A stretch of 25,327 nucleotides of DNA from an uncultured virus (IMG/VR IMGVR_UViG_2711768086_000002) (IMGVR_UViG_2711768086_000002), one strand, 5' to 3'. Numbered from the stretch's first letter, positions 6,293-24,139 are shown. Notes: generated from the letters alone by a model not told the origin. Numbers and translations are program-made.

Positions 6293-6366
6293 CCGGCACT
6301 TCTCCCCCCTCCCTCTCCTCCCCTCCCGGGCTGCCTTCGCATGCCCATATTCGAACTGGAGTTCCC

Positions 6367-6675: not shown

Positions 6676-7364
6676 TGCAGAATCGTTCCTTCACTCGTGA
6701 AGGCGTGTCCGGCGGCGCATCGCGCGTGCGCCGCCGGGCGCTGCTCGGCCTCGTGGTCCTGGTGGCCCTCGTCGTCCTGGCCGGCGCGCTCGCCTTCTTC
6801 ACCCGCGGCACCCGCCCCGCAGCCAACCCTGTCTCCCCGGTGGCCAGTTCGCCCTCATCCGCCAGCGCTTCACCGTCGGCATCGCCTACGGGTGGTGCCG
6901 GGTCGGTTCCGGCGCCGCCATCGACGCACAATCCGATCGCCTACGCGAAGGCTGCGGCGGTGGCGCTGTGGTCGTACGACACCCGCTCGTACTCGCAGCC
7001 GGAGCTGGTGGCCGGCCTCCACCGGTGGCTGACGGCCGAGGGGAATTACGCGGACGCCAGCTCGGTGGACCGCCTGGTGCCCTCGCCGCTGCTGTGGGGA
7101 CGGATGGCCGACTCCGGCCAGCTCGCCACCGCGACCGCGGACGAGGCGCACTTCCCGGACACGTTCACCAGGGCGCTGCAGGCCGATCCGGGGGCGATCA
7201 AGCAGGCGTACATCTACGCCGTCACCGTCACCGGCAAGCAGTCGATCTCCTGGAACGGTGCCCCGCAGGGCGGGGCCGAGGACCGCTCGTCCACCCTCGC
7301 CGTCCAGTGCCGCCCCGACCGTCCCTGCTCTCTGGTCGGCGTGCTGCCGACCGTCTCGCCCTAA
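6675..7364 (+). CDS. Bitopic membrane conjugation protein (possibly VirB8-like)
   Basis: TGATG coupling; RRR then TM helix, Ser/Pro linker, AAAVALWSYD extracellular domain; VirB8 analogy is positional inference. Confidence 0.65.
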   Translation: MQNRSFTREGVSGGASRVRRRALLGLVVLVALVVLAGALAFFTRGTRPAANPVSPVASSPSSASASPSASPTGGAGSVPAPPSTHNPIAYAKAAAVALWSYDTRSYSQPELVAGLHRWLTAEGNYADASSVDRLVPSPLLWGRMADSGQLATATADEAHFPDTFTRALQADPGAIKQAYIYAVTVTGKQSISWNGAPQGGAEDRSSTLAVQCRPDRPCSLVGVLPTVSP

Positions 7365-7385
7365 CCCCAGGAAGGAGGTTCCCCC

Positions 7386-8813: not shown

Positions 8814-8826
8814 CCGGCACCCCACA

Positions 8827-8861
8827 CCCGGGGTGGGCGGCAGCCCGCCGCCCACCCCGGG
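8827..8861. terminator. Strong intra-operon hairpin
   Basis: Perfect 15-bp stem CCCGGGGTGGGCGGC / GCCGCCCACCCCGGG, 5-nt loop. Confidence 0.7.
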
Positions 8862-8959
8862 CCCCGCCTCCGAGCCCCCGGAAGGAGCCCTGCGATGACG
8901 TCCAGAAGAGCACCGCGTCCCCGCCCGCCGCCCGCATGCTCACTCCCTCTGGAATCCCG

Positions 8960-10429
8960 ATGTCCTCTTCGACGCCCGACGCCACCCCTGCGTCCGTCAA
9001 GTTCCCCCACCGCTCCAAGCGCGGCATCCTGCTCGGCCTGAGCGCGCCGCAGCTGATCGCCTGCGCCACCACCGGCCTGCTGCTGCTTGCCGTGCTCACC
9101 ACCCGGGGCGTCACCGGCGCCCTGCAGCTCATACCCCTGTGGGCCGCTGTCGCCGCCCTGGTGTTCATCCGCTACCGGGGCCGCACCCTCGCCGACTGGG
9201 CACCGATCGCCGCCCGCTACGGCCTGCGGCGGCTGCGCGGACAGCTGGTCTGGCTCGTCCGCCCCTCCTCTCGCCCGGTGCGCGAGGGTCTGCTCCACCT
9301 GCCCGGAAGCGCGGCCAGCCTGCGCGTGGTCACCGCCCCGGACCGCCGCTACGGCGCCGTCCACGACCCGCACGCCGGCACCCTCACCGCGATCGTCAAG
9401 GTCAGCAGCCGCGCCTACGCTCTCCTCGACCCCGGCACCCAGAGCGCCAACGTCAACGGCTGGGGGCGTGCTCTCGCGGCGCTCGCCCGCACCGGCCAGG
9501 TCGCCCGTATCCAGGTGGTGGAGCGGACCGTCCCGGACACCGGCGACGCGCTTCGCCGTTACTGGGAGGAGCACGGCCACCCCGACGCGCCGCTCGCGGG
9601 CGAGCTGTACGGGGAGCTGATCCGGGGCGCCGGTCCGGCGGCCGTCCCTCACGAGGCGTACGTCGCCGTGGCCATGGACTTCAAGGCGGCGCGACGGCTG
9701 ATCAACCAGGCCGGTGGCGGCCTGACCGGCGGCTTCGCGGTCCTGGCCCAGCTCACCTCCGCGTTCGAGCAGTCCGCCCGCACCGCCGGCCTCAACCCGA
9801 CCGGCTGGCTCAACGCCGAAGAGATCGCCGCCGTCGCCCGTACCGCCTACGACCCGAAGTCCCGTGCCGCGCTGGACCGCTGGTCCGAGGACGGGCGCCC
9901 GGCCGCCGACCCCGCCGCCGCCGGCCCGGTGGTCGTGGTGGAGAAGGCCGACCACATCTCGACCGACTCCGCCCACCACACCACCTACTGGGTTGAGAAC
10001 TGGCCCAGGACGCAGGTCAACCCCGGCTTCCTGCACCAGCTCATGTTCGCCTCCGGTGTTCGCCGCACCGTCTCCTTGGCCTACGAGCCGAAGGACCTGG
10101 ACTCGGCAATGCGCGATGTCCGCCGCAAGAAGGCGTCGGTGATCGCGGACTCGGCCGAGCGTGCCCGCAAGGGCCAGGTGGCCAGCGAGGCCGACTCGGT
10201 GGAGTACCAGGACATCCAGGATCGCGAGCGGCAGCTGATCGCCGGCCATGCCGACGTGGCCCTCACCGGGCTGCTGACCGTCTCCGCCGATACGGAGGAC
10301 GAACTGCGCTCCGCCTGCGCCGTGGTGGAGACCGCGGCCGTGGGCGCCCAGCTCGATCTTCGCCCGCTCACCTGGCAGCAGGCCGAGGCGTTCACCGCCT
10401 CCGCACTGCCGTTCGCCCTCGCCGCTTGA
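8960..10429 (+). CDS. PrgI/VirB3-like conjugation protein (SCO6880-like)
   Basis: RGILLGLSAPQL plus two TM helices, RIQVVERTVPD, WVENWPR, QQAEAFTASALP; lies before virB4. Confidence 0.82.
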   Translation: MSSSTPDATPASVKFPHRSKRGILLGLSAPQLIACATTGLLLLAVLTTRGVTGALQLIPLWAAVAALVFIRYRGRTLADWAPIAARYGLRRLRGQLVWLVRPSSRPVREGLLHLPGSAASLRVVTAPDRRYGAVHDPHAGTLTAIVKVSSRAYALLDPGTQSANVNGWGRALAALARTGQVARIQVVERTVPDTGDALRRYWEEHGHPDAPLAGELYGELIRGAGPAAVPHEAYVAVAMDFKAARRLINQAGGGLTGGFAVLAQLTSAFEQSARTAGLNPTGWLNAEEIAAVARTAYDPKSRAALDRWSEDGRPAADPAAAGPVVVVEKADHISTDSAHHTTYWVENWPRTQVNPGFLHQLMFASGVRRTVSLAYEPKDLDSAMRDVRRKKASVIADSAERARKGQVASEADSVEYQDIQDRERQLIAGHADVALTGLLTVSADTEDELRSACAVVETAAVGAQLDLRPLTWQQAEAFTASALPFALAA

Positions 10430-10463
10430 TGCCGGCCCGCCCTCCCTCTGAAAGAGCACCCTG

Positions 10464-10913
10464 ATGCCGGCCACCACCCCCGTCGCGCAGGACTTCGTCC
10501 CGTACGCGACCGCCGCGATCGACTTCCACCGCGCGCTCAACGTCCCGACCGGCCCGCTGGTCGCCTCCCGCGCCGAACTCGACTGCCTGCACGAGCACTT
10601 GGTCTCGCTCCACGGCCTCCTTGACGCCCACGCCCAGCGCACCTCCCCGCTGCTGCCAGCCGAGGGCGACCACCTCAAGGCCGCCCGCACCCGCCTGTGG
10701 CAGGCCGCCGACCACCTCCACGCCGCCTACCACGCCTCACCCCGGCCCGGCAGCGGAGAGGTCCCCGGCCCCGACGCGTGCCGCGCCCGCCTTCCCGAGG
10801 GCGCGCCGGAGCTGAGCATCTGCCGCCGCCACCAGGAGACCGCGCAGCTGGTGCGCCGCCGCACCACCCCTGCCGACCTGCACGCCCCGTTCACCGGCCT
10901 CGTCCGCCGCTGA
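10464..10913 (+). CDS. Conserved ICE hypothetical protein (DUF6238-like)
   Basis: 149 aa, His-rich helical, co-oriented between PrgI-like and VirB4 genes; family name from recall only. Confidence 0.65.
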   Translation: MPATTPVAQDFVPYATAAIDFHRALNVPTGPLVASRAELDCLHEHLVSLHGLLDAHAQRTSPLLPAEGDHLKAARTRLWQAADHLHAAYHASPRPGSGEVPGPDACRARLPEGAPELSICRRHQETAQLVRRRTTPADLHAPFTGLVRR

Positions 10914-10936
10914 CCTGCACCCCGGAATCCGTGATC

Positions 10937-12442
10937 ATGCCCAGGAACCGCGCCACCGCCTCCCACCTGTTCGTCCCGCGCAAGACCAGCCGAGCCGACC
11001 GGCGCTCCGCCCGTGCCGGGTTCGCCGAAGCCCGCACCAAGGCCCGCCTCGCCACCCTCCCCACCGTGCGGCGCGAGCGCGAGAGCACCGACCCCGAACT
11101 GCGGCCCGTCTACCCGGTCTCCGGCCGCCCCGGTCCCGCTTCCGCCCGTGGCGGCAAGCTCCGCCTTCCCAAGCACCGCATGACCACCGCCGTCGCCGGC
11201 GGGGCCTACCCCTTCCTCGCGGAGGCCGGCCTCGGCGCCGAAGGGATCTTCATCGGCCGAGACCTGCACGCCGAAGGCTCGTTCTGCTACGACCCCTTCG
11301 CCCTCTACAACTCCGGCCGAATAGAGGGGTTCACGAACCCGAACGGGATCCTGTGCGGCATCATCGGCATGGGCAAGAGCGCGCTCGCCAAGTCCATCGC
11401 GACCCGTGCCATCGCTCACGGATACAAGATCTACATCCCGTCCGACCCGAAGGGTGAGTGGTCGGGCCTGGCCGAGGCCCTCGGCGGCCAGACGATCGCG
11501 CTCGGCCCTGGCCTGCCTGGGAAGTTGAACCCGCTGGACGCGCCGCAGCGTCCGGACGGGGTGAGCGAGGAGGACTGGACCAGCGAGGTCCGCAAGCGCA
11601 GGCTCCTGCTGCTGGCCAGCCTCGCGGCCACCGTGCTCAAGCGCGATCTGCTGCCGATGGAGCACACGGGCCTGGACGTCGCGCTCGATCTGGCCGTCGC
11701 CGACGCCGAGGCGACGGGCACGGTGCCGCTGCTCGGCGATATCGCCCAGGCTCTCGGCCGACCTGAGCGCCTGGATGCCGCCCTCGGCGACCAGGCCGGC
11801 AGCCTCGGCCACGCCATCGACGACCTCGCCCACGCTCTGCGCCGCCTGGTCCACGGCGACTTGTCCGGCATGTTCGACGCGCCGTCCACCGTGACGTTCG
11901 ACCCGGACGCACCGATGCTCTCGATCGACCTCTCCCGGCTCGGCAGCAGCGGCGACGACACGGCCCTGGTGCTGGCCATGACGTGTGCGAGCGCGTGGAT
12001 GGAGTCCGCCCTCGCGGACCCCGCCGGCGGTCGCCGGTGGGTGATCTACGACGAGGCGTGGCGGATCATGCGGCACGTCGGCCTGCTGGAACGGATGCAG
12101 CAGCAGTGGAAGCTGTCCCGAGGCTTGGGCATCGCCAACCTGCTGATCCTGCACCGCCTTTCGGATCTGCTGTCCGCAGGCGACGCCGGATCGCGCGGGC
12201 GAGTCCTCGCGGAGGGACTCCTGGCTGACTGCAGCACCCGGATCATCTACCGCCAGGAACCGGACCAGATCCCCGCCGCCATGGCCCTGCTCGGCCTCAC
12301 CGGCGTCGAGGCCCAGGCCATTGCCGCCCTCACTCGCGGCCGGGGCCTGTGGAAGGTCGCCAGCCTGAGCTTCATCGTGCAGCACCTCCTCCACTCCAGG
12401 GAGAAGCAGCTGTACGACACCGACTTCCGCATGGCCGCTTGA
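10937..12442 (+). CDS. virB4: VirB4-like conjugative ATPase
   Basis: Walker A GIIGMGKS, DPKGEW, LNPLD, Walker B VIYDEAW, KLSRGLG..HRLSD. Confidence 0.92.
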   Translation: MPRNRATASHLFVPRKTSRADRRSARAGFAEARTKARLATLPTVRRERESTDPELRPVYPVSGRPGPASARGGKLRLPKHRMTTAVAGGAYPFLAEAGLGAEGIFIGRDLHAEGSFCYDPFALYNSGRIEGFTNPNGILCGIIGMGKSALAKSIATRAIAHGYKIYIPSDPKGEWSGLAEALGGQTIALGPGLPGKLNPLDAPQRPDGVSEEDWTSEVRKRRLLLLASLAATVLKRDLLPMEHTGLDVALDLAVADAEATGTVPLLGDIAQALGRPERLDAALGDQAGSLGHAIDDLAHALRRLVHGDLSGMFDAPSTVTFDPDAPMLSIDLSRLGSSGDDTALVLAMTCASAWMESALADPAGGRRWVIYDEAWRIMRHVGLLERMQQQWKLSRGLGIANLLILHRLSDLLSAGDAGSRGRVLAEGLLADCSTRIIYRQEPDQIPAAMALLGLTGVEAQAIAALTRGRGLWKVASLSFIVQHLLHSREKQLYDTDFRMAA

Positions 12443-12472: not shown

Positions 12473-13750
12473 GTGTCTACCAACGACGTTGTGTCCTACC
12501 TCGACCACGCCCATCTTATGGCGGCCGACTTCACGGAGTTCGAGCAGCTGGTCGCCGCCCGCCCCGACCAGCGCCCCGCCCTTCACGCCAACTGGCACCC
12601 CGTCCTGACCTCCACCCAGCGCGACGGCGCACAGTGGATGTCCTCCTCCGCCGTGTTCAAGCCCTGCGACGCCCGCGTCGACACCGAACTCAGCGAGGAG
12701 ACGTACGTACGGGTGTACTTCGACGAGGACGGCCGGGCACTGCCCGACCGGCCCCGCCGCCCCGTGCCCGTTCCGCCGCTGGCCGCCGAGCTGGCCGAGC
12801 ACCTGCCCGGGTGGTCCGTCCAGCCCTGTCCCCTCAACCCCGGCCGGGATCTCGTCGAACTGCGCGAGCGGCTCTGGGGTGGAGGTCCAGCGCCCTGGGA
12901 CAGCGTCTCGCCTCCGCACACCGCCCTGCTCCTCGCCGGCCCCGGCGGTGAGCGGTTCCTCGCCGTGAGGCCACGCCCCGGCCACGAGCTGGTGGTCCGC
13001 GCTGCCCGGCCCGACGACGATTCCGACAGCCTCCTCGGCGGCATGAAGCCCCCGGCCCGCATCGTGTTCCCCACCGACGCGACGCCGGCCACGGTGGCGG
13101 CCGATGTCCGGGACCGCCTCGCGCCCGGCTACCGGCAGGCCGCCTGGCAGGCGCGGACGAACGCCTTCACCTTCGCCGCCGAGGGCCTGCAGCGACTGAG
13201 CACCGCCTACATCCCCGGAACCGACATGCCTTGGAGCCGCCGTGGGGAGGCCGGCTCCTTCGAATCCGAGGCCGGCCGCAACCGGGCCGCCTGGCGCTAC
13301 ATCACCACGCTCACCGGCCAGGGCCCGCACCTCGTGGCCGGCATACGGGCAACTGCCCGCGTCGAGGACCACCTCGACCCCGCCACCGGCCCCGCCCTGC
13401 GACGGCTCGGCGAATCCGAGAGGGCACTCGGGCGGCTCCGGGAGATCCGGGAGGGCTGGCAGGACGCCATGGACTGCATCCTCCCCGGGCACCCCAAGGC
13501 CCAGCAGGTCCTCGACCGCGGCGAAGACCTGCGCAACCAGGAGGCGTGGCAGGCCGCCGCACCGCTCAGGGACGGCCCGCTTCCCGCGCTCGCCGCGCAC
13601 GTCGCTCCCAGGGCCGCCCTGCCCGTGCCGGACCGCGAGCAGCAGGTCAAGGCCGCGCTCGCCCGCACCGGCCATCCCCGAGGCGACTTCGCGGTGGCGC
13701 CTGCTCCGCCCCTCCCGCCGGTTCTCGGCACACCCCGCCGCACGCGGTGA
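12473..13750 (+). CDS. Hypothetical protein with shared C-terminal tail
   Basis: 425 aa, co-oriented; ends QVKAALART...PRRTR. Confidence 0.75.
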   Translation: MSTNDVVSYLDHAHLMAADFTEFEQLVAARPDQRPALHANWHPVLTSTQRDGAQWMSSSAVFKPCDARVDTELSEETYVRVYFDEDGRALPDRPRRPVPVPPLAAELAEHLPGWSVQPCPLNPGRDLVELRERLWGGGPAPWDSVSPPHTALLLAGPGGERFLAVRPRPGHELVVRAARPDDDSDSLLGGMKPPARIVFPTDATPATVAADVRDRLAPGYRQAAWQARTNAFTFAAEGLQRLSTAYIPGTDMPWSRRGEAGSFESEAGRNRAAWRYITTLTGQGPHLVAGIRATARVEDHLDPATGPALRRLGESERALGRLREIREGWQDAMDCILPGHPKAQQVLDRGEDLRNQEAWQAAAPLRDGPLPALAAHVAPRAALPVPDREQQVKAALARTGHPRGDFAVAPAPPLPPVLGTPRRTR

Positions 13751-13850
13751 CCGCCTACCACCGCTTCGCAGCCGGACCAAGTCCCCGGTCCCCGGCATCA
13801 TCAGCGCCCCACCTCCAGCGCCCCGGGGCGCGCACCCCCAGGAGCACGCC

Positions 13851-14957
13851 ATGCAACCCTCTGATCTGACCGTCCTGTTCACCGAGAACGCCTTCGGTGT
13901 CACCGCTCACATCTACGGCCCGGACACCCTGACCGACCGTAACGCCACCGGTCCGGCCCGGCGCTATCTCCCTGTCACCCGTCCCCTCGCGCAGCGGGGC
14001 CTTGAGACCGGAGTCGACTTCGGGGCGGACGACTACATCGTTGACGCGGGTCTGCCTGACGGCAGCCGCCTCGTGATCTCGCCGGAGCAGTCCGGCCATG
14101 CGGACGATGCCCTGCCGGACTGGCTGGCGACTCATCACTCCAGCCCCGACGACCCGGATCTGTTCGAAGTCGTCTACGACAGCAGGCTGGACGGGCCCGA
14201 CGCCCGCAACGGGGGAAGCGTGCCCAAGCTGCTCGCCGCCGTCGACGAGCATCTCGACGGCCTCGGCGTGCCGTCCCGCCAGCAGGTCCAGGCCGTACGC
14301 GAAGGCGCCGAGTCCGCACTCCACCGCGCCGGGTTCATCCCCGTCGTCCGCATCCACGAGACCCACCACCGGCTTCCCGCCGCCATGGTCGGCCCCGGCG
14401 AGCGCCGGGTCACCGTCACACGGGCCGTCGACTACCTGCGCTCCGCCGGCTACGGCTTCACCTGCCCGGCGGACCTGATCGACCACAGCCTTCCGCCGGC
14501 GCTGCCCCCGGCCCGGTCGCTGGCTCAGGTCAGCAAGACCATCGCCGAGGCCGGCCACACCCGGGATGCGGTCGAGGCGCTGAGCGAGCTGACCGCACCC
14601 GGTGACGGCGTCCTCGACCAGGTCGTCGGCGCACTCCACCAGACCGCCTCCTGGTGGGAGGGGCTGGGCGGCGCCTCCGATCCGCACTACGCGGCCCGCC
14701 TGCGCTACATCGCGGACCAGGCGGACGGCTACGTGCGGGAGATCCGGGCGATGCGAGGCGACCTCGCCGACCGGCACACCGCCCACCCCGGGCGACCCCG
14801 GTCCGCAGCCCAGGTCACGGCCGCTGGCCTCGACGCCCGGGTGCTCGCCGCGCTCGCCACCTCCCCCGCCTCCACGCGAACCCTCACCGGCCACCCGGCC
14901 GAAGCGGTCCTCGCCTCCCCCGTCTCCGCCGTCCGCGCCGCCGGGCCGCGCCGCTGA
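13851..14957 (+). CDS. Hypothetical modular protein (domains A+B) with shared tail
   Basis: AGGAG RBS, ATG 13851; ends RVLAALATSP...GPRR. Confidence 0.8.
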   Translation: MQPSDLTVLFTENAFGVTAHIYGPDTLTDRNATGPARRYLPVTRPLAQRGLETGVDFGADDYIVDAGLPDGSRLVISPEQSGHADDALPDWLATHHSSPDDPDLFEVVYDSRLDGPDARNGGSVPKLLAAVDEHLDGLGVPSRQQVQAVREGAESALHRAGFIPVVRIHETHHRLPAAMVGPGERRVTVTRAVDYLRSAGYGFTCPADLIDHSLPPALPPARSLAQVSKTIAEAGHTRDAVEALSELTAPGDGVLDQVVGALHQTASWWEGLGGASDPHYAARLRYIADQADGYVREIRAMRGDLADRHTAHPGRPRSAAQVTAAGLDARVLAALATSPASTRTLTGHPAEAVLASPVSAVRAAGPRR

Positions 14958-15054
14958 ACCCCTGTCCCGGAAGGAAGACCGCCATGCCCCGCCGCTGCAG
15001 ACCCGCGCCCCAACCGCCGGTCCACCGTCCGAACCAGCACCGCGGAGCCCCACC

Positions 15055-15801
15055 GTGCCTACCGCCGCACCCACCCAGCTGCCCGACGTCGCCATCGGGC
15101 ACCACCCGACACACGGCATCGTCGCCTCCCTGCCCACCCAGAACGCCGCCGCCCACTGGTTCCTGGAGCGCCTCGACTTCCAGCAACTACCCGGCAACCC
15201 GAAGCTCTTCACGCTCACCGACCAGCACCGCGAACCCCGCGAGCGCGCCGCCTGGGCCGCCAAGCTCCTCACCGGCGCCGGCTACCAGATCGACACCGAC
15301 ATGGCACTCGCCCCCAACGAGAAGACCGGCACGCGGGAACAGGCCCACGCCCGGCTGCCCGCGACCGAACCGGTGCCGGACACCGGTCCGGACGTCGCCT
15401 TCGCCGAGCATCCGCAGCTCGGTGTCGTCGCTGCCACTGACGACACCGTCAACGCGGTCGAGCGCGGTGGTCAGATCCTCGAAGCCCACGGCTGGCGGTT
15501 CAACCACGTGCTCGACGTCTACACACTGCCGGTCACCGTCGACCGGGGCGAGTCGCTGGAGCGCATGGCCTCCGCCACCGCCGCCATGCACCGCGCAGGC
15601 GACCTGCAGGTTGCGGTCCAGCCGCGTCTGGCCGAGGACCTCGCCGCCTGCCGTGCACCGGCCCAGCAGGCTTTCACCACGCACAAGTTCCGCGCCAACG
15701 AGGCTTCGCTCAAGGCAACCACCGCCGTGTCGACCGCTGTCGCCGTGATCCCGCCGCCGGCGGCGGTCGACCCGCGCATCGCCTTCGCCCGTTCCCGCTG
15801 A
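15055..15801 (+). CDS. Hypothetical protein, tandem duplicated domain A
   Basis: GGAG RBS, GTG 15055; internal repeat PDVAIGHHPTHGIVA / PDVAFAEHPQLGVVA; ends FARSR. Confidence 0.78.
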   Translation: MPTAAPTQLPDVAIGHHPTHGIVASLPTQNAAAHWFLERLDFQQLPGNPKLFTLTDQHREPRERAAWAAKLLTGAGYQIDTDMALAPNEKTGTREQAHARLPATEPVPDTGPDVAFAEHPQLGVVAATDDTVNAVERGGQILEAHGWRFNHVLDVYTLPVTVDRGESLERMASATAAMHRAGDLQVAVQPRLAEDLAACRAPAQQAFTTHKFRANEASLKATTAVSTAVAVIPPPAAVDPRIAFARSR

Positions 15802-15838
15802 CCACCCCAACCCCCACCCCTACCAAGGAGAAGAGCAC

Positions 15839-16336
15839 ATGGCTGTGAAGAAGGTCTGGCAGATCACCCACTCGTGCGGGCACCAGGCGGCCAGGGATCT
15901 TGGTGACCGTCCGGCCGACCGCCGGGCCGGCTTCGCCGACTGGCTCGCCAAGCAGGAGTGCACCGACTGCTGGCGCGCCGCGAAGGACGGCGACGAGGCC
16001 GAGAAGGCTGCGTGGCTGCAGGCCAAGCGGTCCGCCGAGCAGGCGGAGTCGGAAGCCTGGTCCGAGCAGTTCCGGATGCCGCCGCTGGAGGGCACCGAGA
16101 AGGGGATCGCCTGGGGCGTGCGCTGCCGCCACCAGGTCCTCGCCGCCGCGTACGCCGCGCTCGTCGTCGACTCCGGCATGCCGGAGCCCGAGTGGGAGCG
16201 GATCGAGGACCGGGCACGCACGATCACCCGCGCCGGCTGGTGGATCGACCAGCGCACCTCCGGACCGGGCGACCTGGAGGAGCTGCTGGAGGCCGCCGTG
16301 GACGCCGACCGGCCGACCGAGAACCCCTTCATGTGA
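15839..16336 (+). CDS. Hypothetical protein, probable Zn-binding N-terminus
   Basis: AAGGAG RBS; HSCGH...CTDC ligands, coiled segment, PPLEGTEKGIAWG. Confidence 0.8.
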   Translation: MAVKKVWQITHSCGHQAARDLGDRPADRRAGFADWLAKQECTDCWRAAKDGDEAEKAAWLQAKRSAEQAESEAWSEQFRMPPLEGTEKGIAWGVRCRHQVLAAAYAALVVDSGMPEPEWERIEDRARTITRAGWWIDQRTSGPGDLEELLEAAVDADRPTENPFM

Positions 16337-16411
16337 CCTGCCGGCGCGCTGCCCGGAGCAGGGCACCGGCCCCAACTCCCACCGCCGTAGAACGATTCGG
16401 AACACACCTCC

Positions 16412-16936
16412 ATGGCTACCTACCCGCTGCAGTGCACCGTCCGGCGCACCGAGAGCACCCTCGACCTGCTGAACGCGTTGGACGCGCTCAACGACGACCC
16501 CGACTTCGAGCCGAGCCTGTTCGCTACGTGGTCGCCCGGTCCGCCCGATCAGCAGGTCTACGACCTGCGGGACCTGGCGGCGCTGCTGGACGAACCGCGG
16601 GCGCTTCGCAAGCCCCGCACCGGCCACACCCCCTCCCCGCGCCTGACCTGGCACTGCTCGATACGCAGCACCACCCAGTCCGGCCTCAGCGAGGATCACT
16701 GGTGGGACCTGCTGCTGCAGGTGCTCAATGCCACCGGCATCCAGCCGCAGAACGATCCCAACTCCTGCCGCTGGCTGGCTGTGCGCTCCACCGCCGACAG
16801 GCTCGACATCGTCGCCACCGTCATCCGCCAGGACGGCAGCTGGGCCCGGCTGCACAACGACGAGCGATTCGCCCAGTACGCCTGCGAGCGCTTCGCTGCT
16901 GACCACAAGATCAACTCGCCGAAGCCGCTCGGCTAG
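16412..16936 (+). CDS. Degenerate relaxase (MOB-P/VirD2-like) domain protein
   Basis: TWHCSIR...LSEDHW...TGI...CRWLAVR...DIVAT follows the actinobacterial relaxase pattern but the HxH metal motif reads RLD. Confidence 0.72.
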   Translation: MATYPLQCTVRRTESTLDLLNALDALNDDPDFEPSLFATWSPGPPDQQVYDLRDLAALLDEPRALRKPRTGHTPSPRLTWHCSIRSTTQSGLSEDHWWDLLLQVLNATGIQPQNDPNSCRWLAVRSTADRLDIVATVIRQDGSWARLHNDERFAQYACERFAADHKINSPKPLG

Positions 16937-16947
16937 GACTGTTGGAC

Positions 16948-16992
16948 GGCCCGGCCGGAGCGCGGCTTCTACCACCGATCTCCGGCCGGGCC
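16948..16992. repeat. 13-bp perfect inverted repeat with 19-nt spacer
   Basis: GGCCCGGCCGGAG (16948-16960) / CTCCGGCCGGGCC (16980-16992) between the two relaxase-like genes. Confidence 0.7.
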
Positions 16993-17068
16993 AAACCTCC
17001 GATCCTGCGGACTCTGTCCTCGTCAGCCCGCTCGCCGGGCCCCGCCGCCCGTCCGAGAAGGGGACGCC

Positions 17069-18277
17069 GTGATCGCCCACCTGCAGCGCGCAACCACCAC
17101 GGCCGCGCTGATTCCCGCCCTGTACGGCCTGGACGAGCCTGGCGACCGGCTGCGTCCCCGGCTGATCGGCGCCGACTACCGGGGCGCCGACAAGCAACTG
17201 CCTCTGTTCGGTGACCCGCAGGAGGTCCTCGGCGGCGGTGTGCTGGACGCCCCCGCTCTGCGGATCGGCTCCCGGGCGCCTGCGCGCCCCGTGTGGATGT
17301 GCTCGGTGCGCTCCGACCCGCGTCACCCGGACCTGAGCGACGCCCAGTGGACCGATGTCACCCGGCGCCTGGTCACCGCGACCGGGCTCGCCCCGGACGG
17401 CGACCCGGACGGCTGCCGGTGGGCGGCGATCCGCAACGGCAACCGGTCGGTGCACGTCGTCGCCACCGTCGTGCGCGAGGACGGATACATCCACAACACC
17501 TACCGCGACCCCTTCCACGTGCAGGCCGAGTGCACCCGCATCGCCGCCGAACTCGGCCACCTCACCCGTACCGTCACCACCGCCAAGGACCACCGGATGC
17601 CCTCCATCACCATCAGCGCCGAGCTCAGCGGTAGCGTCGTCGCCACCGGCGCCAGCGACGACCTGTCGGCCACCCTGCTCCGCCACGCCGGGTTCAAGCA
17701 GATCGACGACTGGCACGGCCGCCGCCACCGGCTGCCCACCACCACCGCCCCCGCCGACCGGGCCTCCATCGCCACCCACGCCACCGAGATGCTGCGCGCC
17801 GCCCGCTACACCGTCGACCTCGACCCCAAGCTCGACGCCGAGCAGCTCAGCACCGCAGGTCGGCAGATCCTGAATCTCACCGATGAGCTGCGCGGCGCCA
17901 AGGACTTCGCGGAACTCGCGGGGGTGCTCGACGAGCTGCTCGACCCGGACGAGGGGATGCTGGTGCGTCTCCAGGAGGCCCTGGAGATCGCCTCCGAGCA
18001 GATCACCGAACTCGATCCCGACCAGTTCGCGCTCTCCGACCGGTTCGGCTTCGCGTCCGACCAGTTGGTCACCGCCCAGGCCGAACTGGCCGGGGCCGTC
18101 GACGAGGTGCAGCGCGCCGTGTCCGACACGGCGGGCCGTGCCGACGACCTGCGTACCCGCGCCGCTCTTGCCCGCAGCACCACCGCCCCGGTCGCCGCCA
18201 ACGCCTCGGACCTGCCCGCCGCTTGGCGGACACCCGTACCGGCCGCAGCGGCAGTTCCCGCCGGCCGCACCCGCTGA
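17069..18277 (+). CDS. Degenerate relaxase-like domain fused to domains A+B and shared tail
   Basis: PVWMCSVR...LSDAQW...TGLAPDGDPDGCRWAAIRNGNRSVHVVAT; internal AAGGA+ATG at 17597; ends RTRAALARS...GRTR. Confidence 0.78.
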   Translation: MIAHLQRATTTAALIPALYGLDEPGDRLRPRLIGADYRGADKQLPLFGDPQEVLGGGVLDAPALRIGSRAPARPVWMCSVRSDPRHPDLSDAQWTDVTRRLVTATGLAPDGDPDGCRWAAIRNGNRSVHVVATVVREDGYIHNTYRDPFHVQAECTRIAAELGHLTRTVTTAKDHRMPSITISAELSGSVVATGASDDLSATLLRHAGFKQIDDWHGRRHRLPTTTAPADRASIATHATEMLRAARYTVDLDPKLDAEQLSTAGRQILNLTDELRGAKDFAELAGVLDELLDPDEGMLVRLQEALEIASEQITELDPDQFALSDRFGFASDQLVTAQAELAGAVDEVQRAVSDTAGRADDLRTRAALARSTTAPVAANASDLPAAWRTPVPAAAAVPAGRTR

Positions 18278-18313
18278 AACGTTCCTGCACGTCACTACTT
18301 CCTGGGAGCCCTG

Positions 18314-18964
18314 GTGCCCGAGCACTACTCGTCGATCGGAGAAGCGGTCGGCGCCGCCATGCAGCACAACATCCGCCTGGCCCACCGCGACCAGCAGACC
18401 CTCACAGCCGACCAGCCGCTCCAGGTCCGCTACATCCCGCCGCCCACCGCCGACCCCCGCTCCCTGCCGGGCATGGTCGTCCGGCTCGAGGAGGACGCGA
18501 GCCCCGGTGACGTGGCGGCGATCTTCGAGGAGACAACCAGCGCCCTGGTCGGCCCGCTGACGCAGCTGACCGAGCTGGTCGCGGCCGGGGCCGACTGGGC
18601 CCGCGCCAGGGTGGACTTCGCCTCCCCCGGCTACAACCTGTCCTACGACACGTGGGCGCGGCTGGCCACCGCGCACCAGGCGCTCCTCACCGTCCGGGAG
18701 GACCTGGAGACCACCACCGCGAGGATCCCCGACTGCCCCGCCGAGCCGAGCCGCTCAGGCCACTCGGAGACCATGCCGGTGCTGCGGACCCGCGAACTAC
18801 TGCACGACGTCATGGGCAGCGTGCCGCCGCCCACGTCGGAGGCCCAGCGCCGTCAGGCAGCCGTCGCCGGCTCTCCCCGGCGCGTGCCCCAGCCGTCTAC
18901 CACCCCCGAGCCCACCGCCACGCCGACCACGGCCCCGGCCGCGCAACCGCGCCGTACCCGCTGA
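18314..18964 (+). CDS. Hypothetical protein (domain B) with shared tail
   Basis: GGGAG RBS, GTG; ends QRRQAAVAGSP...PRRTR. Confidence 0.78.
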   Translation: MPEHYSSIGEAVGAAMQHNIRLAHRDQQTLTADQPLQVRYIPPPTADPRSLPGMVVRLEEDASPGDVAAIFEETTSALVGPLTQLTELVAAGADWARARVDFASPGYNLSYDTWARLATAHQALLTVREDLETTTARIPDCPAEPSRSGHSETMPVLRTRELLHDVMGSVPPPTSEAQRRQAAVAGSPRRVPQPSTTPEPTATPTTAPAAQPRRTR

Positions 18965-18990
18965 CAGCAGCACCGAGAGGACCGACCACC

Positions 18991-19416
18991 ATGGGAAACC
19001 TCGCCGACACCTACGGCACCGACGTCGAGATCTACCGCGGCGGAGACGACCGGATCTGGGCTGACTGCCGCACCGACGCCCCTGGCCTCATCGACCGCAC
19101 CCTGCGCCAGTTCGGCTTCACCGCCCCACCCGACCCTGGCAACCCCGCCTCCTACAGCCTCCCGCCGGAGCGGCCCCGCGCCGACCAGCTGACCGCCGCG
19201 TCCGGCGCGGCCTACCTGCTTGGCGTCCAGCAGCACCGGGTCGCCATCGAGCCGGAGTTGGTCGTCACCATCGACGGCCGGGACAACCCCGCCGCCGAGC
19301 TGCGGCGCGCAGCAGCCCTCGCCACCTCCCCCGCAACGCGCGTGACCGCCACCGTGCAGCAGCCACCGGCCCCGCCGACGCCGGCGTCCGAGCGACCGAG
19401 CAGCCGCACCCGCTGA
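18991..19416 (+). CDS. Hypothetical protein (domain A) with shared tail
   Basis: GAGAGG RBS, ATG 18991; ends LRRAAALATSP...SRTR. Confidence 0.78.
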   Translation: MGNLADTYGTDVEIYRGGDDRIWADCRTDAPGLIDRTLRQFGFTAPPDPGNPASYSLPPERPRADQLTAASGAAYLLGVQQHRVAIEPELVVTIDGRDNPAAELRRAAALATSPATRVTATVQQPPAPPTPASERPSSRTR

Positions 19417-19520
19417 AACGTTCCCTCGCCCCTCGCCCGAAGAAAGGCACCCCGTGACGATCCGTTCGAGAGCCGAGCGCGCCCCGCCCACCGCCCGCTC
19501 GCACCCACCTGGACTCTCCC

Positions 19521-21312
19521 TTGCCCGCCCCGCGCACCGGCGCACCGTCGACCTCCACCGGCACGGACGCGCTCCTCTACCTCCTGTTCGCCGTCGTCGG
19601 CGCCGCCATCGCCTTCGGCTCCCTCGCCTGGCTGACCGGCAACCTCACCAACTACATCGTGGGGTCCGGCCCTTGGGCGCCGTTCCACGTCGCCGACGCC
19701 CTCCTTCACCCCGACCGGCTGTGGCCCCACCTCGACCCGACCTCCGTCCTGGTCGGCGCCCGCATAGTCCCCGGCGCCCTCACCATCGCCATCACCGTCA
19801 CCGTCCTGGTGCTGTGGCAGCGCCGCCGCGCTGGCGCGAAGAGCGGCATGGCCCGCAAGGCGGACATAGCGCCGCTCCTGGACAAGGAGATCACCGCCAA
19901 GGCCCGCAGCCTGCGCCCGAGCCTGAACGACCGGGAGTGTAAAAGAGGTCGAGCCGAACGACCGCGGCATCCTGATCGGCACGCTCTCCCCCGGCCGGGC
20001 CGAGGTCCGCGCCTCGTGGGAGGACGTGATGGTCGCCATCATGGCGCCCCGCTCCGGCAAGACGAGCGGCATCGCGATCCCGGCGATCCTCGCCGCCCCC
20101 GGACCGGTGCTGCTGACCTCGAACAAGGCCGCCAGCGACGCGTACACCACCTGCGTTGACGCCCGTGCGAAGGTCGGCAAGGTCTGGACCATGGACCCGC
20201 AGCAGATCGCGCACCACCCGCGCGAGATGTGGTGGGACATCCTCGCGGACGCCCGCGACCTCGCCGGCGCCAAGCGTCTGGCCGGGCACTTCGTGACCGC
20301 GAGCGTGGACGAGTCCAGCGGCTCCGACTTCTGGTCGACCGCGGCGAGCAACACCCTCGGGTCGCTGTTCCTGGCCGCCGCGAGCCACCGGCGCCCGATC
20401 ACGGACGTGCTGGCCTGGCTCGCCTCGCCCTCCGACCGCACCCCCGTCGACCTGCTCACCGATGCCGGCCACCACGCGGTCGCCGCCCAGCTCCAGGGCA
20501 CCGTCACGGGTGCCACGGAGACGAGGGACGGTATTTACGAGACGGCGCGCCAGTACGCGAGCTGCCTGCTGGACCCGGAGATCGCCGCCTGGGTCACCCC
20601 CACCGAGGGTCTGCCGGAGTTCAAGCCGTTCGCCTTCGCTTCCTCTCGCGACACACTGTTCCTGCTGAGCAAGGACGGCGGCGGCTCCGCCAGCGCGATC
20701 ATCGCGGCTGCGGCCGACGCGGTGATGCGCGCGGCCGTCATCGTCGCCGAACGCTCCGGAGGCCGGCTCGACCCGCCCGCGCTGTGCGTCCTCGACGAGG
20801 CCGCCAACGTCTGCAAAATCTCGGACCTCCCGGACCTGTACTCCCACTTGGGCAGCCGGGGCGTCATCCCGATCACCATCCTGCAGTCCTACCGCCAGGG
20901 CCAGCGCTGCTGGGGTGAGGCTGGCATGGACGCCCTCTGGTCGGCGGCCACCGTCAAGGTCATCGGCAGCGGGATCGATGACGCCGACTTCGCGGACCGG
21001 CTTTCCCGGCAGATCGGCGAGCACGAGGTGCAGACCGTCTCCGTGTCCGACTCCGGCAGCGGCAAGTCGACTTCGGTGTCGATGCGCACCGAGCGCATCC
21101 TGCCGCCCGACGAGATCCGCGCCCTGCCCAAGGGCAAGATCCTGCTCTTCGCGACCGGCATGCGGGTGGCGATGCTCGACCTCAAGCCCTGGTACAAGGA
21201 GCGCTCCGCCAAGGAGATCGGCCCGGCCTCCGCCCGCGCCACCAAGGCCATCACCGAACGCGCCATCGCGAAGGCTGCCGCCAGCCGCGACGACTTCACC
21301 CTCTCGGCCTGA
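19521..21312 (+). pseudogene. virD4: VirD4/TraG-like type IV coupling protein with +1 frameshift near 19941-19944 (or sequencing error)
   Basis: TM N-terminus in ORF 19521; Walker A APRSGKT, Walker B VLDEAAN, SHLGSRG..ILQS in ORF 20026; removing one A from TGTAAAAGAG joins the frames. Confidence 0.88.
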
Positions 21313-21414
21313 CCCACCCCACCGGCGGCGCCGACCGGGAAGCCGCCTCTTCTCCGGCCGGCGCCAACCCCGGCCGCTTACCCCGCCTCCGCCTCGACTC
21401 CGGAAGGTCTCTTC

Positions 21415-21660
21415 ATGTCCGACACCAACTCGCCTGCCGCCCTCCGCCGTTCGGCTCCCCTCGCCGGGGCGCCGGTCGTCCGCCGGGGCGGCCAGTGGTG
21501 GCTGATCACCGGCACCGGCTCGATCCTGACCACCGACCCCGTCTTCACCGGTGAGCTGGACCGCTTCGCCACCGCGATGGCCGCCGCCGACCGCGAGGTC
21601 GACCGGCTGCGGGACAAGCAGGCCGGCACCCGGAAGAAGCGGAAGGGGAAGCGGCGGTGA
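21415..21660 (+). CDS. Small hypothetical protein
   Basis: GGAAGG RBS; 81 aa with VRRGGQWWL and basic end; overlaps next start. Confidence 0.7.
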   Translation: MSDTNSPAALRRSAPLAGAPVVRRGGQWWLITGTGSILTTDPVFTGELDRFATAMAAADREVDRLRDKQAGTRKKRKGKRR

Positions 21661-22853
21661 TGGACGCACTGCTCAAGGGCGAGCAAGCCCTTCTCGGCGC
21701 GGTCCTCCTCGACCCTGCCCAGCTCGACACGCTGGCCTGGCTGACACCCGCCGACTTCTACCGTCCGGCTCACCGAGCCCTGTTCGCCGCGATGCGGACC
21801 CTGAGCAACGATCAGCGTCCGGTGCGGGAGGCTGACGGGACAGTACCGCTCTCGTGGGTGACCGACACGGTCGCCGAGGCGAGCCGCCAGGTGCGCGGGT
21901 TGAACGCCTCGTACCCGTTCACCCTGATCGCCGCATGCCCGCGCCCGCAGAACGCCCCGGTGTACGGCCGCATGGTGCTCGAAGGGTCCATCCACCGCAC
22001 GGTGCTTGAGCACGCCGTCCGTCTGGAACACGTCGCCCACATCGATGCCGAGCAGCACCAGGTCGAGGGCGTCCTGCACCACGCCGATGCCCTCACCGGC
22101 GTGCTCGGCGACCTCGCCCGCCGCTGGGGCACCGAGCCTCGTCCCGTCCCGCCGCCCGGTCCTGGCGCGAGCACGGCGGCGTCACCGGTCGGGCCCAAGG
22201 AGACCGAGGACGAGCAGTTCCTCCTGGCCGTCCTCGTCCACCAGCCCGCAGCGATGGCCGAGGTGTACGACTGGCTACGGCCCGGCGACTTCGCCGACGC
22301 CGGCAACGGCCAGGTCTACCGCTGCCTCGGCGCTCTCCACCACCGAGGCGAGCCGATCGACGAGGTGACCGCCCTGTGGGAGGTCCAGCGGCGCGGCCTG
22401 CTGGTCGATGGCACGCTCTCGCGCGAACAGGTCGACAGTCTCTTCGGTGGCCCGGGGGCGGGTTCGGCCGAGTGGCTGGGCGACCAGGTCATCCGTGCCT
22501 CCGTCGTGCGCACTGCTGCCGGAGCCGCCACCACCATCAAGGCGTTGGCCGAAGCCGAGGCGATGGCGCCGGGCCGTCTCATCGGACAGGCCCTGCATGC
22601 CCTCGGCCCGCTCGACGAGGTGCGTGCCCGCTGGCGTACGGCCAACGGGCAACCTTCCCCGACAGCCGAGAGCGCTGGCCCAGCACAACGCCCCGATCCT
22701 GCGGCCCGGGTGCGCGCGGCGCTGTCCCGAAGTCCCCAGCAGCGCCTCGCTCCGAGGACCACCCCGCCCGCCGCCGCCATGTCCGGGACTGGCGCCACGA
22801 CCACGTCACCTGTCCGCACCTCGCCCTCCCACCACCTCCGGAGCACCTCGTGA
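21657..22853 (+). CDS. Protein with two DnaB-helicase N-terminal-like domains, no ATPase, shared tail
   Basis: EQALLGAVLLDP...LTPADFYRPAHRALF and EQFLLAVLVHQP...LRPGDFADAGNGQVY; no Walker A; RVRAALSRSP near end. Confidence 0.85.
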   Translation: MMDALLKGEQALLGAVLLDPAQLDTLAWLTPADFYRPAHRALFAAMRTLSNDQRPVREADGTVPLSWVTDTVAEASRQVRGLNASYPFTLIAACPRPQNAPVYGRMVLEGSIHRTVLEHAVRLEHVAHIDAEQHQVEGVLHHADALTGVLGDLARRWGTEPRPVPPPGPGASTAASPVGPKETEDEQFLLAVLVHQPAAMAEVYDWLRPGDFADAGNGQVYRCLGALHHRGEPIDEVTALWEVQRRGLLVDGTLSREQVDSLFGGPGAGSAEWLGDQVIRASVVRTAAGAATTIKALAEAEAMAPGRLIGQALHALGPLDEVRARWRTANGQPSPTAESAGPAQRPDPAARVRAALSRSPQQRLAPRTTPPAAAMSGTGATTTSPVRTSPSHHLRSTS

Positions 22854-23431
22854 ACAGCCCGATATCGGAGGCACTGCTGCTGCACGCCACCGCGACCGTG
22901 ATCGACGCCCAACGCGAAAAACTGCCCCAGGTCAGCGCCCCGTTCCGCCTGCCCGACCCCATCGGCGTGGCCCGGCAGACCACCGAACTCGGCGGCCTCA
23001 TCGCCGAGCTGGGCGACGAGTACCTGTTCCGTGCGGACGCTTCCGCGCCGCAGGAGCACACCACGCACGCGGCCGAGGCGTTCGCCAACACCATCGGCAG
23101 CGTCGCCCAGGCCGCCTCCGCCCTCGGCACCGTGGCCCAGCAGCTCGCCTTCGTCGCCCGAACGGCCGGCAAGCGCGGTGAGCCGGGCTACGAGGACGCT
23201 CACACCGATGCCGGGCAGCTGATCGAGCTCGCCGTCGAGACGGCACGCGACGACCTCGCCGAAGCCGCCCAAACCCTGCGGACCGCCGCCTCGGCCGTCT
23301 CCCCGCCGCCCGCAGTCAAGGTCCAGCGAGCCGCCCTCGCCCGCTCCCCCGGCGCTTCGACAGCATCTCCGGCGCCGATCGCGACCGCTGTTGCGGTGGC
23401 GGCCCAGCGCGCTCCGGCCCGCGCCCGGTGA
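22850..23431 (+). CDS. Helical hypothetical protein with shared tail
   Basis: GGAG RBS, GTGA coupling; ends VQRAALARSP...ARAR. Confidence 0.78.
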   Translation: MNSPISEALLLHATATVIDAQREKLPQVSAPFRLPDPIGVARQTTELGGLIAELGDEYLFRADASAPQEHTTHAAEAFANTIGSVAQAASALGTVAQQLAFVARTAGKRGEPGYEDAHTDAGQLIELAVETARDDLAEAAQTLRTAASAVSPPPAVKVQRAALARSPGASTASPAPIATAVAVAAQRAPARAR

Positions 23432-23473
23432 ACCGTTCCGCCGCCCCTTCGACCTTCACCCCAGGATCTGACC

Positions 23474-24139
23474 ATGCTTGACGAGGACGCCCACGACTAC
23501 GCTGTCCGGCTGGAGTCGGCCGCGACCGAGCTCGTCCGTGCCAGCGCACGGCATCCGTACTCCTTCTCCAATGCCTACGGCAACGGCCGCGAGGTCACCG
23601 TCTGCGATCTCGCCGAGGCCGTGGAGCGCGTGGAGTACCACCATCACGCGGCCATCAGTGAGGCGAGCTTCCACTCGCAGGATCCCCGTTCCAGTCCCCG
23701 CTCTGCCGTCCTGGCTCGGGAGTGGAGTTCCGTAGGGACAGTCCTGGCCCAGGTCAGCCTGGATCTCACGCGGGCAGTGGAGGTGGCGAGCCGTCTCGCC
23801 GACGCCCGTGTACGGGCTCCGGAGACCGCCAGCGCCTTCGAGCGGCAGGCCGCCACCGAGGTCTCCCGCCTCCTCGCCAACGCGCGGGCGGGAATCGACC
23901 GTGCCGTCGACATGATGTTCGACAGCGCCCACCACCTGACTGGCAGGCGCCCGATGCCGGCACCGGACTTGGCCGCGCTCTTCGCCGAGACCGCCACGGG
24001 GGAGCTGGGTCCGACGTCCCAGCGGGAAAGGGCCGCGCTGGCCCGGTCCGGCAGCACCTTCCCCGTCCTGTCGCCCGCCCCGACCACGCCCACGCCCACG
24101 CCCACCGCGACTCCTCCCTCTCCCCGAGGCCGGCGGTGA
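23474..24139 (+). CDS. Helical hypothetical protein with shared tail
   Basis: AGGA RBS; ends RERAALARS...PRGRR. Confidence 0.78.
   Translation: MLDEDAHDYAVRLESAATELVRASARHPYSFSNAYGNGREVTVCDLAEAVERVEYHHHAAISEASFHSQDPRSSPRSAVLAREWSSVGTVLAQVSLDLTRAVEVASRLADARVRAPETASAFERQAATEVSRLLANARAGIDRAVDMMFDSAHHLTGRRPMPAPDLAALFAETATGELGPTSQRERAALARSGSTFPVLSPAPTTPTPTPTATPPSPRGRR

Follow-up and report, generated by a model that had tools for sequence, protein, structure and literature searches.

A shared arginine-tipped C-terminal tail on proteins of a Streptomycetaceae conjugative element, a candidate type IV secretion signal

Why would a series of neighbouring genes, many of whose products are otherwise different, end their proteins in the same way? 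The question is raised by a stretch of DNA of 25,327 nucleotides filed as an uncultured virus (IMG/VR IMGVR_UViG_2711768086_000002; henceforth the window, meaning the whole stretch), which Pfam and NCBIfam matches identify as an integrative and conjugative element (ICE) of the T4SS (type IV secretion system) type. Its G+C content is 72%, nearly all of its genes are on the plus strand as judged from the codon-position G+C profile, and one of the proteins concerned has its closest named homologues in Kitasatospora and Streptomyces. An earlier note on this DNA had proposed that nine open reading frames (ORFs) of the element share a C-terminal tail, and that this tail is a translocation signal for a VirD4-type coupling protein (T4CP). 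The genome-wide tests of this proposal were run in the nearest relative, G001 (9.1 Mb), whose ICE is 93% identical to that of the window.

The shared tail is real and lies far above chance. All nine ORFs (starting at 12473, 13851, 15055, 17069, 18314, 18991, 21657, 22850 and 23474) are present on the plus strand in the frame with high third-position G+C, and eight of the 13 proteins encoded in 12473-24139 carry the strict motif AA[LV][AS][RTG][ST]. The distance from this motif to the stop is 32, 36, 38, 35 and 34 residues in ORFs 12473, 13851, 17069, 18314 and 18991, respectively, and 45, 33 and 35 residues in ORFs 21657 (the DnaB_N protein), 22850 and 23474. No ORF tail on the minus strand of the window contained a strict match, against eight on the plus strand, and when the residues of each tail were shuffled 2000 times the mean number of motif matches was 0.046 (maximum 2). 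The background consisted of 311 genes, predicted by the same procedure in related genomes over 20 stretches of chromosome; a single one of them had the motif within its last 60 residues, so that the motif is clearly rarer in high-GC genes outside the ICE. The codons of the motif differ at synonymous sites (TCC, AGC, AGT and TCT for Ser, i.e. both families; GCC, GCG, GCA and GCT for Ala; CTC, CTT, CTG and GTC for Leu/Val) and therefore it is the protein, not the DNA, that has been conserved. The ninth ORF, 15055, had been set down as a weak variant. Its copy in the window is indeed degenerate and has no strict motif, but its orthologues keep AAALAASPA followed by DPRIAF[AS]R.R, and for this reason we regard it as a true member.

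Three components make up the tail: a brief helical motif, R-x-x-A-A-L-A-R-S-P, then a Pro/Ala/Thr linker that is disordered and of fairly constant length, and finally P-[GR]-R-x-R at the C-terminus. AlphaFold2 (AF2) models place the motif of the ORF 17069 product (g17069; the other products are named likewise) at the end of a long helix (residues 320-371), followed by residues 372-402 with pLDDT below 50 (12 sequences, mean pLDDT 70), and that of g13851 in an isolated helix of nine residues (329-337) within a region, 315-368, that has pLDDT below 50 (10 sequences, mean pLDDT 72). Among ICE genes that end in R.R the linker contains 25% Ala, 16% Pro and 10% Thr, and the last residues follow the consensus P-[GR]-R-[TASR]-R. 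The last 45 residues of the tail proteins have a net charge of +3 to +6, and neither a transmembrane segment nor a signal peptide was found in these proteins (over 19 residues, hydropathy peaks at no more than 1.10 within the tails and no more than 1.26 within residues 1-60).

Conservation follows the same three-part division. Over 110 full-length homologues of g17069 the body is conserved at 79% on average, the stretch before the motif at 18-66% (one column reaches 88%), the motif columns A-A-L-A-T-S-P-A at 57-97% and most of the linker columns at about 30-50%; the last residue is Arg in 102 of them. The 120 best homologues include 84 with an R.R end and 14 with PRR. Motif and end are separated by 35-41 residues in 100 of 106 homologues of this orthologous family and, across families, by 31-45 in 18 of 19 ICE domain matches of a core-motif profile. 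Orthologues of g12473 keep both the motif and the R-x-R end, the latter is found in 11 of the 13 copies of g18314 listed (window included), and an ICE clade whose T4CP is 62% identical has the variant motif IAAAGRLRS 38 residues from the end. Conservation in orthologues reaches down to about 50% identity. Given a conserved motif and end, a near-constant distance and a variable linker, the tail looks like two short conserved elements kept at a set distance by a fast-evolving spacer.

To see how far the tail is a property of ICEs, we compared coupling-protein neighbourhoods with the chromosomal background. T4CP matches (E up to 1e-20) were present in 196 of 401 genomes of the family, and the ICE sample comprised 20-kb stretches around the T4CP from 39 genomes or copies, which together with the window gave 40 ICE sources; genes were called with a crude filter of G+C by codon position on stop-to-stop frames. 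A final Arg with at least two Arg in the last five residues occurred in 82 of 263 ICE genes (plus strand, 20 loci) compared to 16/311 in the background, and if the last 35 residues had also to be rich in Pro, Ala, Thr, Ser or Gly the counts became 47/263 and 2/311. At the very end, R.R was found in 96 of 542 plus-strand ICE genes (window and 39 loci) and in 2/311 background genes. With a 15-residue profile of the helix motif, 18 plus-strand ICE tails ranked above the first background match. The consensus first proposed, helix motif plus Arg-rich terminus, holds in that both elements are there, but the widely conserved part is the Arg-x-Arg end with its Pro/Ala/Thr linker: the strict helix motif appears only in ICEs with a T4CP at least about 75% identical, and the arginine end extends further.

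Whole-genome scans gave the same picture. Profile A3, made from 21 whole tails (41 positions), had seven matches with E up to 0.003 in G001, all inside the ICE (C2:97.7-115 kb), the next-best match having E 0.029 and an internal stop. When the 401 genomes were scanned, with scoring limited to 18 candidates per genome, at least 38 matches reached E 0.001 or better, and these came from 23 genomes. At least 31 of these 38 lay within 12 kb of a T4CP match on the same contig (a lower bound, the T4CP position of genome G114 being absent from the matches listed), and 13 of the 31 came from genomes without a sequence in the profile. Six of the remaining seven were inspected: one belonged to the same ICE on a split contig, two were real tails (on a DnaB_N orthologue, and on a 661-residue relaxase-like protein adjoining an integrase in G114) and three were false, two of them not C-terminal and one in a junk frame. 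T4CP-positive genomes made up 21 of the 23 with A3 matches, compared to 196 of 401 overall. The surroundings of five chromosomal cmd-like clusters, whose VirB4-like protein is 31-35% identical, served to control for T4SS-like machinery as such, and none of the 64 genes there had the R.R end. The tail is thus confined to ICE genes and linked with the coupling protein, and the enrichment in virD4-type ICEs that had been anticipated is borne out. Against 1.84 billion representative sequences A3 had no match at E up to 0.001, a search for which a 41-position profile is too weak and which therefore does not inform on the range of the tail.

These cmd-like clusters (L105-L109, in five genomes) have C-termini of their own, near-identical across genera (e.g. 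EHHRAFVNTLPFATGIRR), and some of their proteins end in DKDLAA or ADDAVA. The SCO6878/6880/6881 cluster of Streptomyces coelicolor figures in print, in the portion of the source at hand, only as a paralogue of the cmdABCDEF genes (PMC2782261).

The earlier note had suggested looking for the tail on the true relaxases of such elements as well. The G001 ICE has a conventional MobA/VirD2 relaxase about 25 kb past the coupling protein; 100 of 151 genomes had a homologue of it, in many cases at a distance of 5-45 kb from the T4CP. In the 30 best of these loci the folded part ends with VWRLRRLADLPAHP and is followed by a Pro-, Ala-, Thr- and Arg-rich tail, some 40 residues long, that finishes ...DPRNRPPRR or ...RRPGPRR. 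At least two of the last five residues are Arg in 28 of the 30 and the final one is Arg in 26, so that a Pro/Ala/Thr-rich, Arg-tipped tail is indeed common to relaxases and accessory proteins, but the AALARSP helix is absent from all 30 tails and only two end in R.R. Among more distant elements, pNO33 of S. noursei (T4CP 59% identical) has a relaxase ending in RHRGPRR, and that of a plasmid of Streptomyces sp. NBC_00212 (T4CP 49%) ends in GPRRAR, with AAARSTSP...GGKTR carried by the next gene. In these comparisons the arginine-tipped spacer thus looks like a trait of the relaxase itself, which this ICE family has spread to a large number of accessory proteins and supplemented there by a helix motif.

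How can these observations be put together? Restriction to ICEs, linkage to the T4CP, likeness to the relaxase ends, disorder and a free basic end all match the T4SS signal of Agrobacterium, an arginine-rich C-terminal peptide in the VirB/D4 system (PMC3937733, citing Vergunst 2005, as far as the part of that source at hand goes). On these grounds we propose, and give an even chance of being right, that the tail is a portable bipartite C-terminal signal by which soluble ICE-encoded proteins are recruited to, or translocated by, the T4SS. The receptor would most likely be the VirD4-type coupling protein. The short basic/alanine helix (R-x-x-A-A-L-A-R-S-P) would dock on the receptor, the disordered Pro/Ala/Thr linker of about 25-30 residues would act as a spacer, and the free P-[GR]-R-x-R carboxy-terminus would engage a second acidic site or the ATPase channel. 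Proteins tagged in this way, among them the relaxase-like g17069 and the DnaB_N protein and, farther along the G001 ICE, helix-turn-helix (HTH) regulators and SPDY proteins, would then be passed on to the T4SS and would enter the recipient together with the DNA; identity of the receptor, binding at two sites and transfer itself all belong to this proposal.

More tentatively, and with chances somewhat short of even, one may go a step further and suppose that a large family of T4SS-type ICEs in Streptomycetaceae encodes its own proteins for co-transfer and labels every one of them with the same 'zip code', defined by its sequence. It would comprise a helix for docking, a disordered ruler constrained in length and a free Arg-x-Arg end, read at two sites of the coupling ATPase. 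Each element would inject some 10-16 soluble proteins, along with its DNA, into the recipient mycelium, and the cargo would include a degenerate relaxase-like protein, the DnaB_N protein, HTH regulators and SPDY proteins. A second C-terminal tag, D-F-x-L-A-A (see below), would send the ATPases of the machine and the DNA methyltransferases to another fate.

Several points weigh against the proposal of a secretion signal. Any ICE protein that travels with a T4CP would give the same co-localisation, which makes the coupling protein a candidate receptor only. The relaxases end in PRR and have no AALARSP helix, and therefore accessory proteins and relaxases may perhaps not be read alike. Farther afield among actinobacterial T4SS plasmids little or nothing of the tail is seen: one Rhodococcus plasmid (T4CP 40% identical) has a weakly basic relaxase end only, and one Arthrobacter plasmid (T4CP 42%) shows no tail. 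The Fisher p for the R.R end (4.5e-18) is overstated, given the kinship of the loci and the crude gene calling, the effect still being about thirtyfold, and A3 was built partly from the same ICEs that it then detects. Finally, the T4CP and the VirB4-like ATPase share another C-terminal motif, from which it follows that shared C-termini in this element need not mean export.

The alternative that survives best, although we consider it rather unlikely, is docking without export. Here the tail would tether accessory proteins to a hub in the donor cytoplasm, either the relaxosome/T4CP platform or an ICE protein such as g15839, where they would be concentrated or ordered while none is translocated. 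Restriction to the ICE and T4CP linkage are expected equally in this case, and tailed HTH regulators (HxlR, LuxR/GerE) as well as a helicase-loader-like DnaB_N protein could well act on the ICE DNA in the donor. For a hub, g15839 has suitable traits, being acidic (pI 5.0), tail-less and in possession of WWIDQR...DRPTENPF in most of the ICE loci listed. What speaks for translocation instead is that translocation signals are known to take this form, a long disordered linker with a free basic C-terminus, at least in the part of the source at hand (PMC3937733), and that the relaxases of these elements, the canonical transferred proteins, bear the same kind of tail.

Another use of a disordered tail with a free end, as the AF2 models have it, would be as a degron or remodelling tag that gives ICE proteins to a host AAA+ unfoldase or protease (ClpX, ClpC1 or Lon-type), possibly with an adaptor reading the helix motif, and so keeps conjugation proteins short-lived. 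Both LAA-type C-termini and the basic ones of MuA type are recognised by ClpX, and ssrA, too, is a tag in two parts, an adaptor site and LAA. The same ICE moreover has a second class of common C-termini. As had been noted before, the arginine-tipped tail is missing from VirB4, from the membrane T4SS genes and from the methyltransferases, and several of this group turn out to share instead [DE]-[FY]-x-[LM]-[AST]-[AS]: the VirB4-like ATPase ends in DTDFRMAA (12415-12442), the T4CP in DDFTLSA (21285-21312) and the SCO6880 protein in PFALAA (10400-10429), and the N6 methylase has DDFVLAGPEA near its end (3776-3808, minus strand). In relatives the motif also ends C5 methylases, a DUF4913 protein and a Cys-rich protein, and its loose pattern was found in 41 ORFs of the 40 ICE sources, all on the plus strand, against one in the 20 background loci. 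D-F-x-L-[AS]-[AS] resembles the ssrA end, and this second motif may be an ssrA-like degron or a docking peptide. For the arginine-tipped tail, a fate of this kind is unlikely. Were the tail read by a host protease, host substrates should bear it as well, but host genes are nearly without it (2/311 for R.R; in G001, all profile matches with E up to 0.003 fall inside the ICE). A spacing of about 32-40 residues and a helix motif specific to element lineages exceed what a simple degron needs, the relaxases carry the arginine end and yet must last until transferred, and R-x-R or RR is not the non-polar L-A-A end of ssrA/ClpX-type signals.

Contact of the basic tip, as a flexible arm, with DNA, RNA or the anionic polymers of membrane and wall is very unlikely: the net charge of the tails and the DNA-related bodies (DnaB_N, relaxase-like, HxlR, LuxR, relaxase) would suit it, but basic residues are confined to the last 3-5 positions, the Ala/Pro/Thr-rich linker is unlike Lys/Arg-rich DNA-binding tails, and a strictly terminal R-x-R with a helix motif at fixed distance favours a protein receptor. 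That the tail has no function of its own and is a by-product of high G+C, overlapping frames or repeated DNA at gene ends is most improbable and already contradicted by the controls, for although Pro/Ala-rich tails do blur the codon-position G+C signal near gene ends and the repeat TGAA[AC]CGTTCC stands behind three of the stops, the minus strand and a background of the same composition yielded zero and 1/311 motif matches, codons vary synonymously through the motif in both Ser families, orthologues conserve it as far as described above, and the repeat accompanies 3/9 tails only and tail-free genes as well.

Returning to the proposed secretion signal, several known systems offer parallels. The consensus published for Agrobacterium is R-x7-R-x-R-x-R, to which we liken the tail by description rather than by formal comparison. 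Substrates of the Agrobacterium VirB/VirD4 system (VirF, VirE2, VirE3, VirD2 and VirD5) likewise have an arginine-based signal at the extreme C-terminus of unrelated proteins and of the relaxase, and a VirD4-type T4CP, in the account given by the portion of PMC3937733 at hand. All these traits recur here, in that the tail is at the extreme C-terminus of soluble proteins, is arginine-rich with a net positive charge and is encoded together with a VirD4-type T4CP, and relaxases also have an Arg end. It differs in its sharply defined P-[GR]-R-x-R-COOH, its Pro/Ala/Thr spacer and a second, helical motif at near-fixed distance, as well as in the Gram-positive actinomycete host and in a target that would be another bacterium.

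Bartonella effectors and relaxases have in common a BID-plus-tail signal, in which the BID domain is a folded unit of about 100-140 residues. The Bep effectors and the related relaxases resemble the present case in being bipartite, with an upstream element and a basic end (reference list of PMC11288057), whereas here a helix motif of some nine residues takes the place of the folded BID domain upstream; eight tail proteins of the window have no known domain, with no Pfam match, BID included, at E up to 5. In Xanthomonas the XVIPCD is a folded domain of about 120 residues borne by antibacterial toxins. Like the tail it is a sequence-conserved C-terminal module on otherwise different T4SS-encoded proteins, and in the X-T4SS it is read by the all-alpha domain of VirD4 (PMC8740702, in the part at hand). 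The tail, in contrast, has about 45 mostly disordered residues (AF2) on non-toxin ICE proteins and is not a folded domain; it is by size and disorder, and not by sequence similarity, that we set the two apart.

Many element-encoded soluble proteins also accompany DNA in the 'conjutome' of the F-like plasmid pED208, with no fewer than 16 proteins encoded by the plasmid, among them ParA/ParB, SSB and PsiB, going by the portions of PMC11288057 and PMC8406263 at hand; for the ICE such transfer is proposed. The pED208 signals are described in the former as heterogeneous, C-terminal or internal and without a common sequence motif, as opposed to the one recognisable tag on the whole set here. Tripartite sortase and exosortase signals (LPXTG/LAXTG, transmembrane helix, basic end) are similar in their succession of motif, spacer and Arg-rich end, and one of the tails even reads LARTG. 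A sortase/exosortase or tail-anchor signal is ruled out, however, since signal peptides and hydrophobic segments are both lacking in the tail proteins (hydropathy over 19 residues no higher than 1.26).

We know of no sequence-defined translocation signal described for actinobacterial T4SS elements. No description of the tail was found in the full-text literature (main texts, supplements excluded) on Streptomyces T4SS ICEs, actinobacterial C-terminal signals, SCO688x or Gram-positive conjugative protein translocation, and in the part at hand of a paper on Streptomyces ICEs (PMC9513070) the term 'C-terminal' is absent and no such tail described. What is new would then be a bipartite form, defined by its sequence, that the known T4SS signal of positive charge takes in a Gram-positive conjugative element. 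How substrates are recognised is one of the least understood aspects of Gram-positive conjugation, and were the zip-code idea true, the tail would be its first defined translocation signal and a bioinformatic key by which to list the cargo of any such element. With a tag on a dozen or more proteins per element, it would become testable which proteins travel, what the T4CP reads and what the cargo does in the recipient (e.g. establishment, anti-defence or regulation), and a simple rule of cargo prediction would apply to many ICE-bearing Streptomyces and Kitasatospora genomes. Protein delivery between actinomycetes could be an application. Even a signal for docking or turnover would amount to a new, element-specific system of short linear motifs.

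As to the tail proteins themselves, their bodies had been described as otherwise different, which is clearly so for the DnaB_N protein of the window and for the HxlR, LuxR/GerE and SPDY proteins of the G001 ICE, but not for two pairs, g16412/g17069 and g13851/g17069. The most informative body is that of g17069 (402 residues; 17069-18277, plus strand, as are g16412, the other tail genes and the coupling protein gene below), which consists of a relaxase-like N-terminal domain (residues 1-165), a small alpha/beta domain and a helical hairpin, ahead of the tail (18149-18277: LRTRAALARST, linker, AGRTR). The N-terminal domain has a relaxase-like fold, as in HUH conjugative relaxases (within 17069-17570). 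Its alignment (A1) contains the stretch AAIRNGNRSVHVV with one nearly invariant His (H129), and what looks like a degenerate form of the metal-binding histidine triad (HxDx..HxH) was placed there by eye from the alignment, with no structural superposition. This domain is matched (E 1e-18) by g16412 (174 residues; 16412-16936), a tail-less paralogue of it that ends in NSPKPLG. About 100 residues are common to g17069 and g13851 (E 4e-5). The latter (368 residues; 13851-14957; tail 14835-14957: ARVLAALATSP, linker, AGPRR) gave generic helical-hairpin rows alone in a second structural look (VIA-align).

For most of the other bodies, searches against Pfam (E up to 5), NCBIfam and the ESM Atlas returned nothing useful by way of known families. 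They belong to g12473 (425 residues, no known family; 12473-13750), whose tail (13640-13750) runs from QQVKAALARTG through the linker to PRRTR; g15055 (248 residues; 15055-15801), in which the helix motif is degenerate and the tail (about 15691-15801) ends ...VDPRIAFARSR; g18314 (216 residues; 18314-18964; tail 18845-18964: QRRQAAVAGSP, linker, PRRTR); and g18991 (141 residues; 18991-19416; tail 19300-19416: LRRAAALATSP, linker, SSRTR). Beyond the coupling protein gene come g22850 (193 residues; 22850-23431; tail 23318-23431: KVQRAALARSP, linker, APARAR) and g23474 (221 residues; 23474-24139; tail 24020-24139: QRERAALARSG, linker, SPRGRR). The tail protein with two DnaB_N domains (398 residues; 21657-22853) is the one with the longer linker and a weakly basic end (tail 22704-22853: ARVRAALSRSP to HHLRSTS), and its orthologues end ...R[SG][HT][SGPR]. 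Just before its gene, 21415-21660 encodes a protein of 81 residues with a Lys/Arg-run end, RKKRKGKRR; we judged this basic end to be of a different kind and excluded it from the tail count. Relatives of the protein have variable ends, e.g. ARKEGP and KAARKARR.

The candidate reader of the tail, the VirD4-type coupling protein, is encoded at 19521-21312 and matches TraG-D_C (7e-35) and T4SS-DNA_transf (2e-22). Its transmembrane segment is found only in the N-terminal part, which starts at 19521 in a different frame from the soluble part (20026-21312). The gene is accordingly split into two ORFs, 19521-20159 and 19927-21312, with the junction at about 19930-19960. G001 has a fused T4CP in one frame of 615 residues, against 461 in the window, and the two sequences differ by a short low-G+C stretch, GAGTGTAAAAGAGG, with a net insertion of 7 bases. 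The split form (460/461 residues) recurs in many relatives, in several of which the N-terminal ORF ends ...ECKRGRAR. Programmed frameshifting, a T4CP made of two parts, or decay might each explain it.

The G001 ICE runs on past the extent of the window with at least six further tail genes, including those for an HxlR/MarR protein, two SPDY (DUF317) proteins and a LuxR/GerE protein. Between tail genes and relaxase lies a pPIWI_RE defence module (L100, G001:C2:82400-102325; on the minus strand relative to the ICE genes), with a REase, pPIWI_RE_X/MID/RNaseH and a protein of 1212 residues, followed by the MobA/VirD2 relaxase with MobC/NikA. This module is cargo of the ICE.

Elsewhere in the window, Pfam and NCBIfam matches mark a tyrosine integrase (522-2135), an N6/N4 methyltransferase on the minus strand (3776-4522) and a C5 methyltransferase that runs past the window end. 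The tail-free T4SS module (4958-12442, plus strand) encodes an NlpC/P60 hydrolase, a DUF6112/TrbC-like protein, SCO6881-family and SCO6880/PrgI-family proteins, a DUF6238 protein and the VirB4-like ATPase (10697-12442). The acidic g15839 mentioned above (15839-16336; 165 residues) has no known family. Its conserved blocks are TRAGWWIDQR and DRPTENPF, and the ICE loci that keep them include some with a T4CP about 71% identical; it is a candidate adaptor or DNA mimic.

Two patterns were seen in the DNA at gene ends. One, for R-T-R-stop, had five matches in the window against 0.49 expected from shuffles, and was rejected as a discriminator, with 352 matches in G001 that are mostly out of frame. 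The other, TGAA[AC]CGTTCC, begins at the stop codon of three tail genes (18272-18285, 19411-19424 and 23426-23439; three against 0.22 expected), and had 12 matches in ICE loci and none in background loci. At least six other ICE loci have it immediately upstream of the T4CP gene, behind tail-free genes as well, and it may be a regulatory site.

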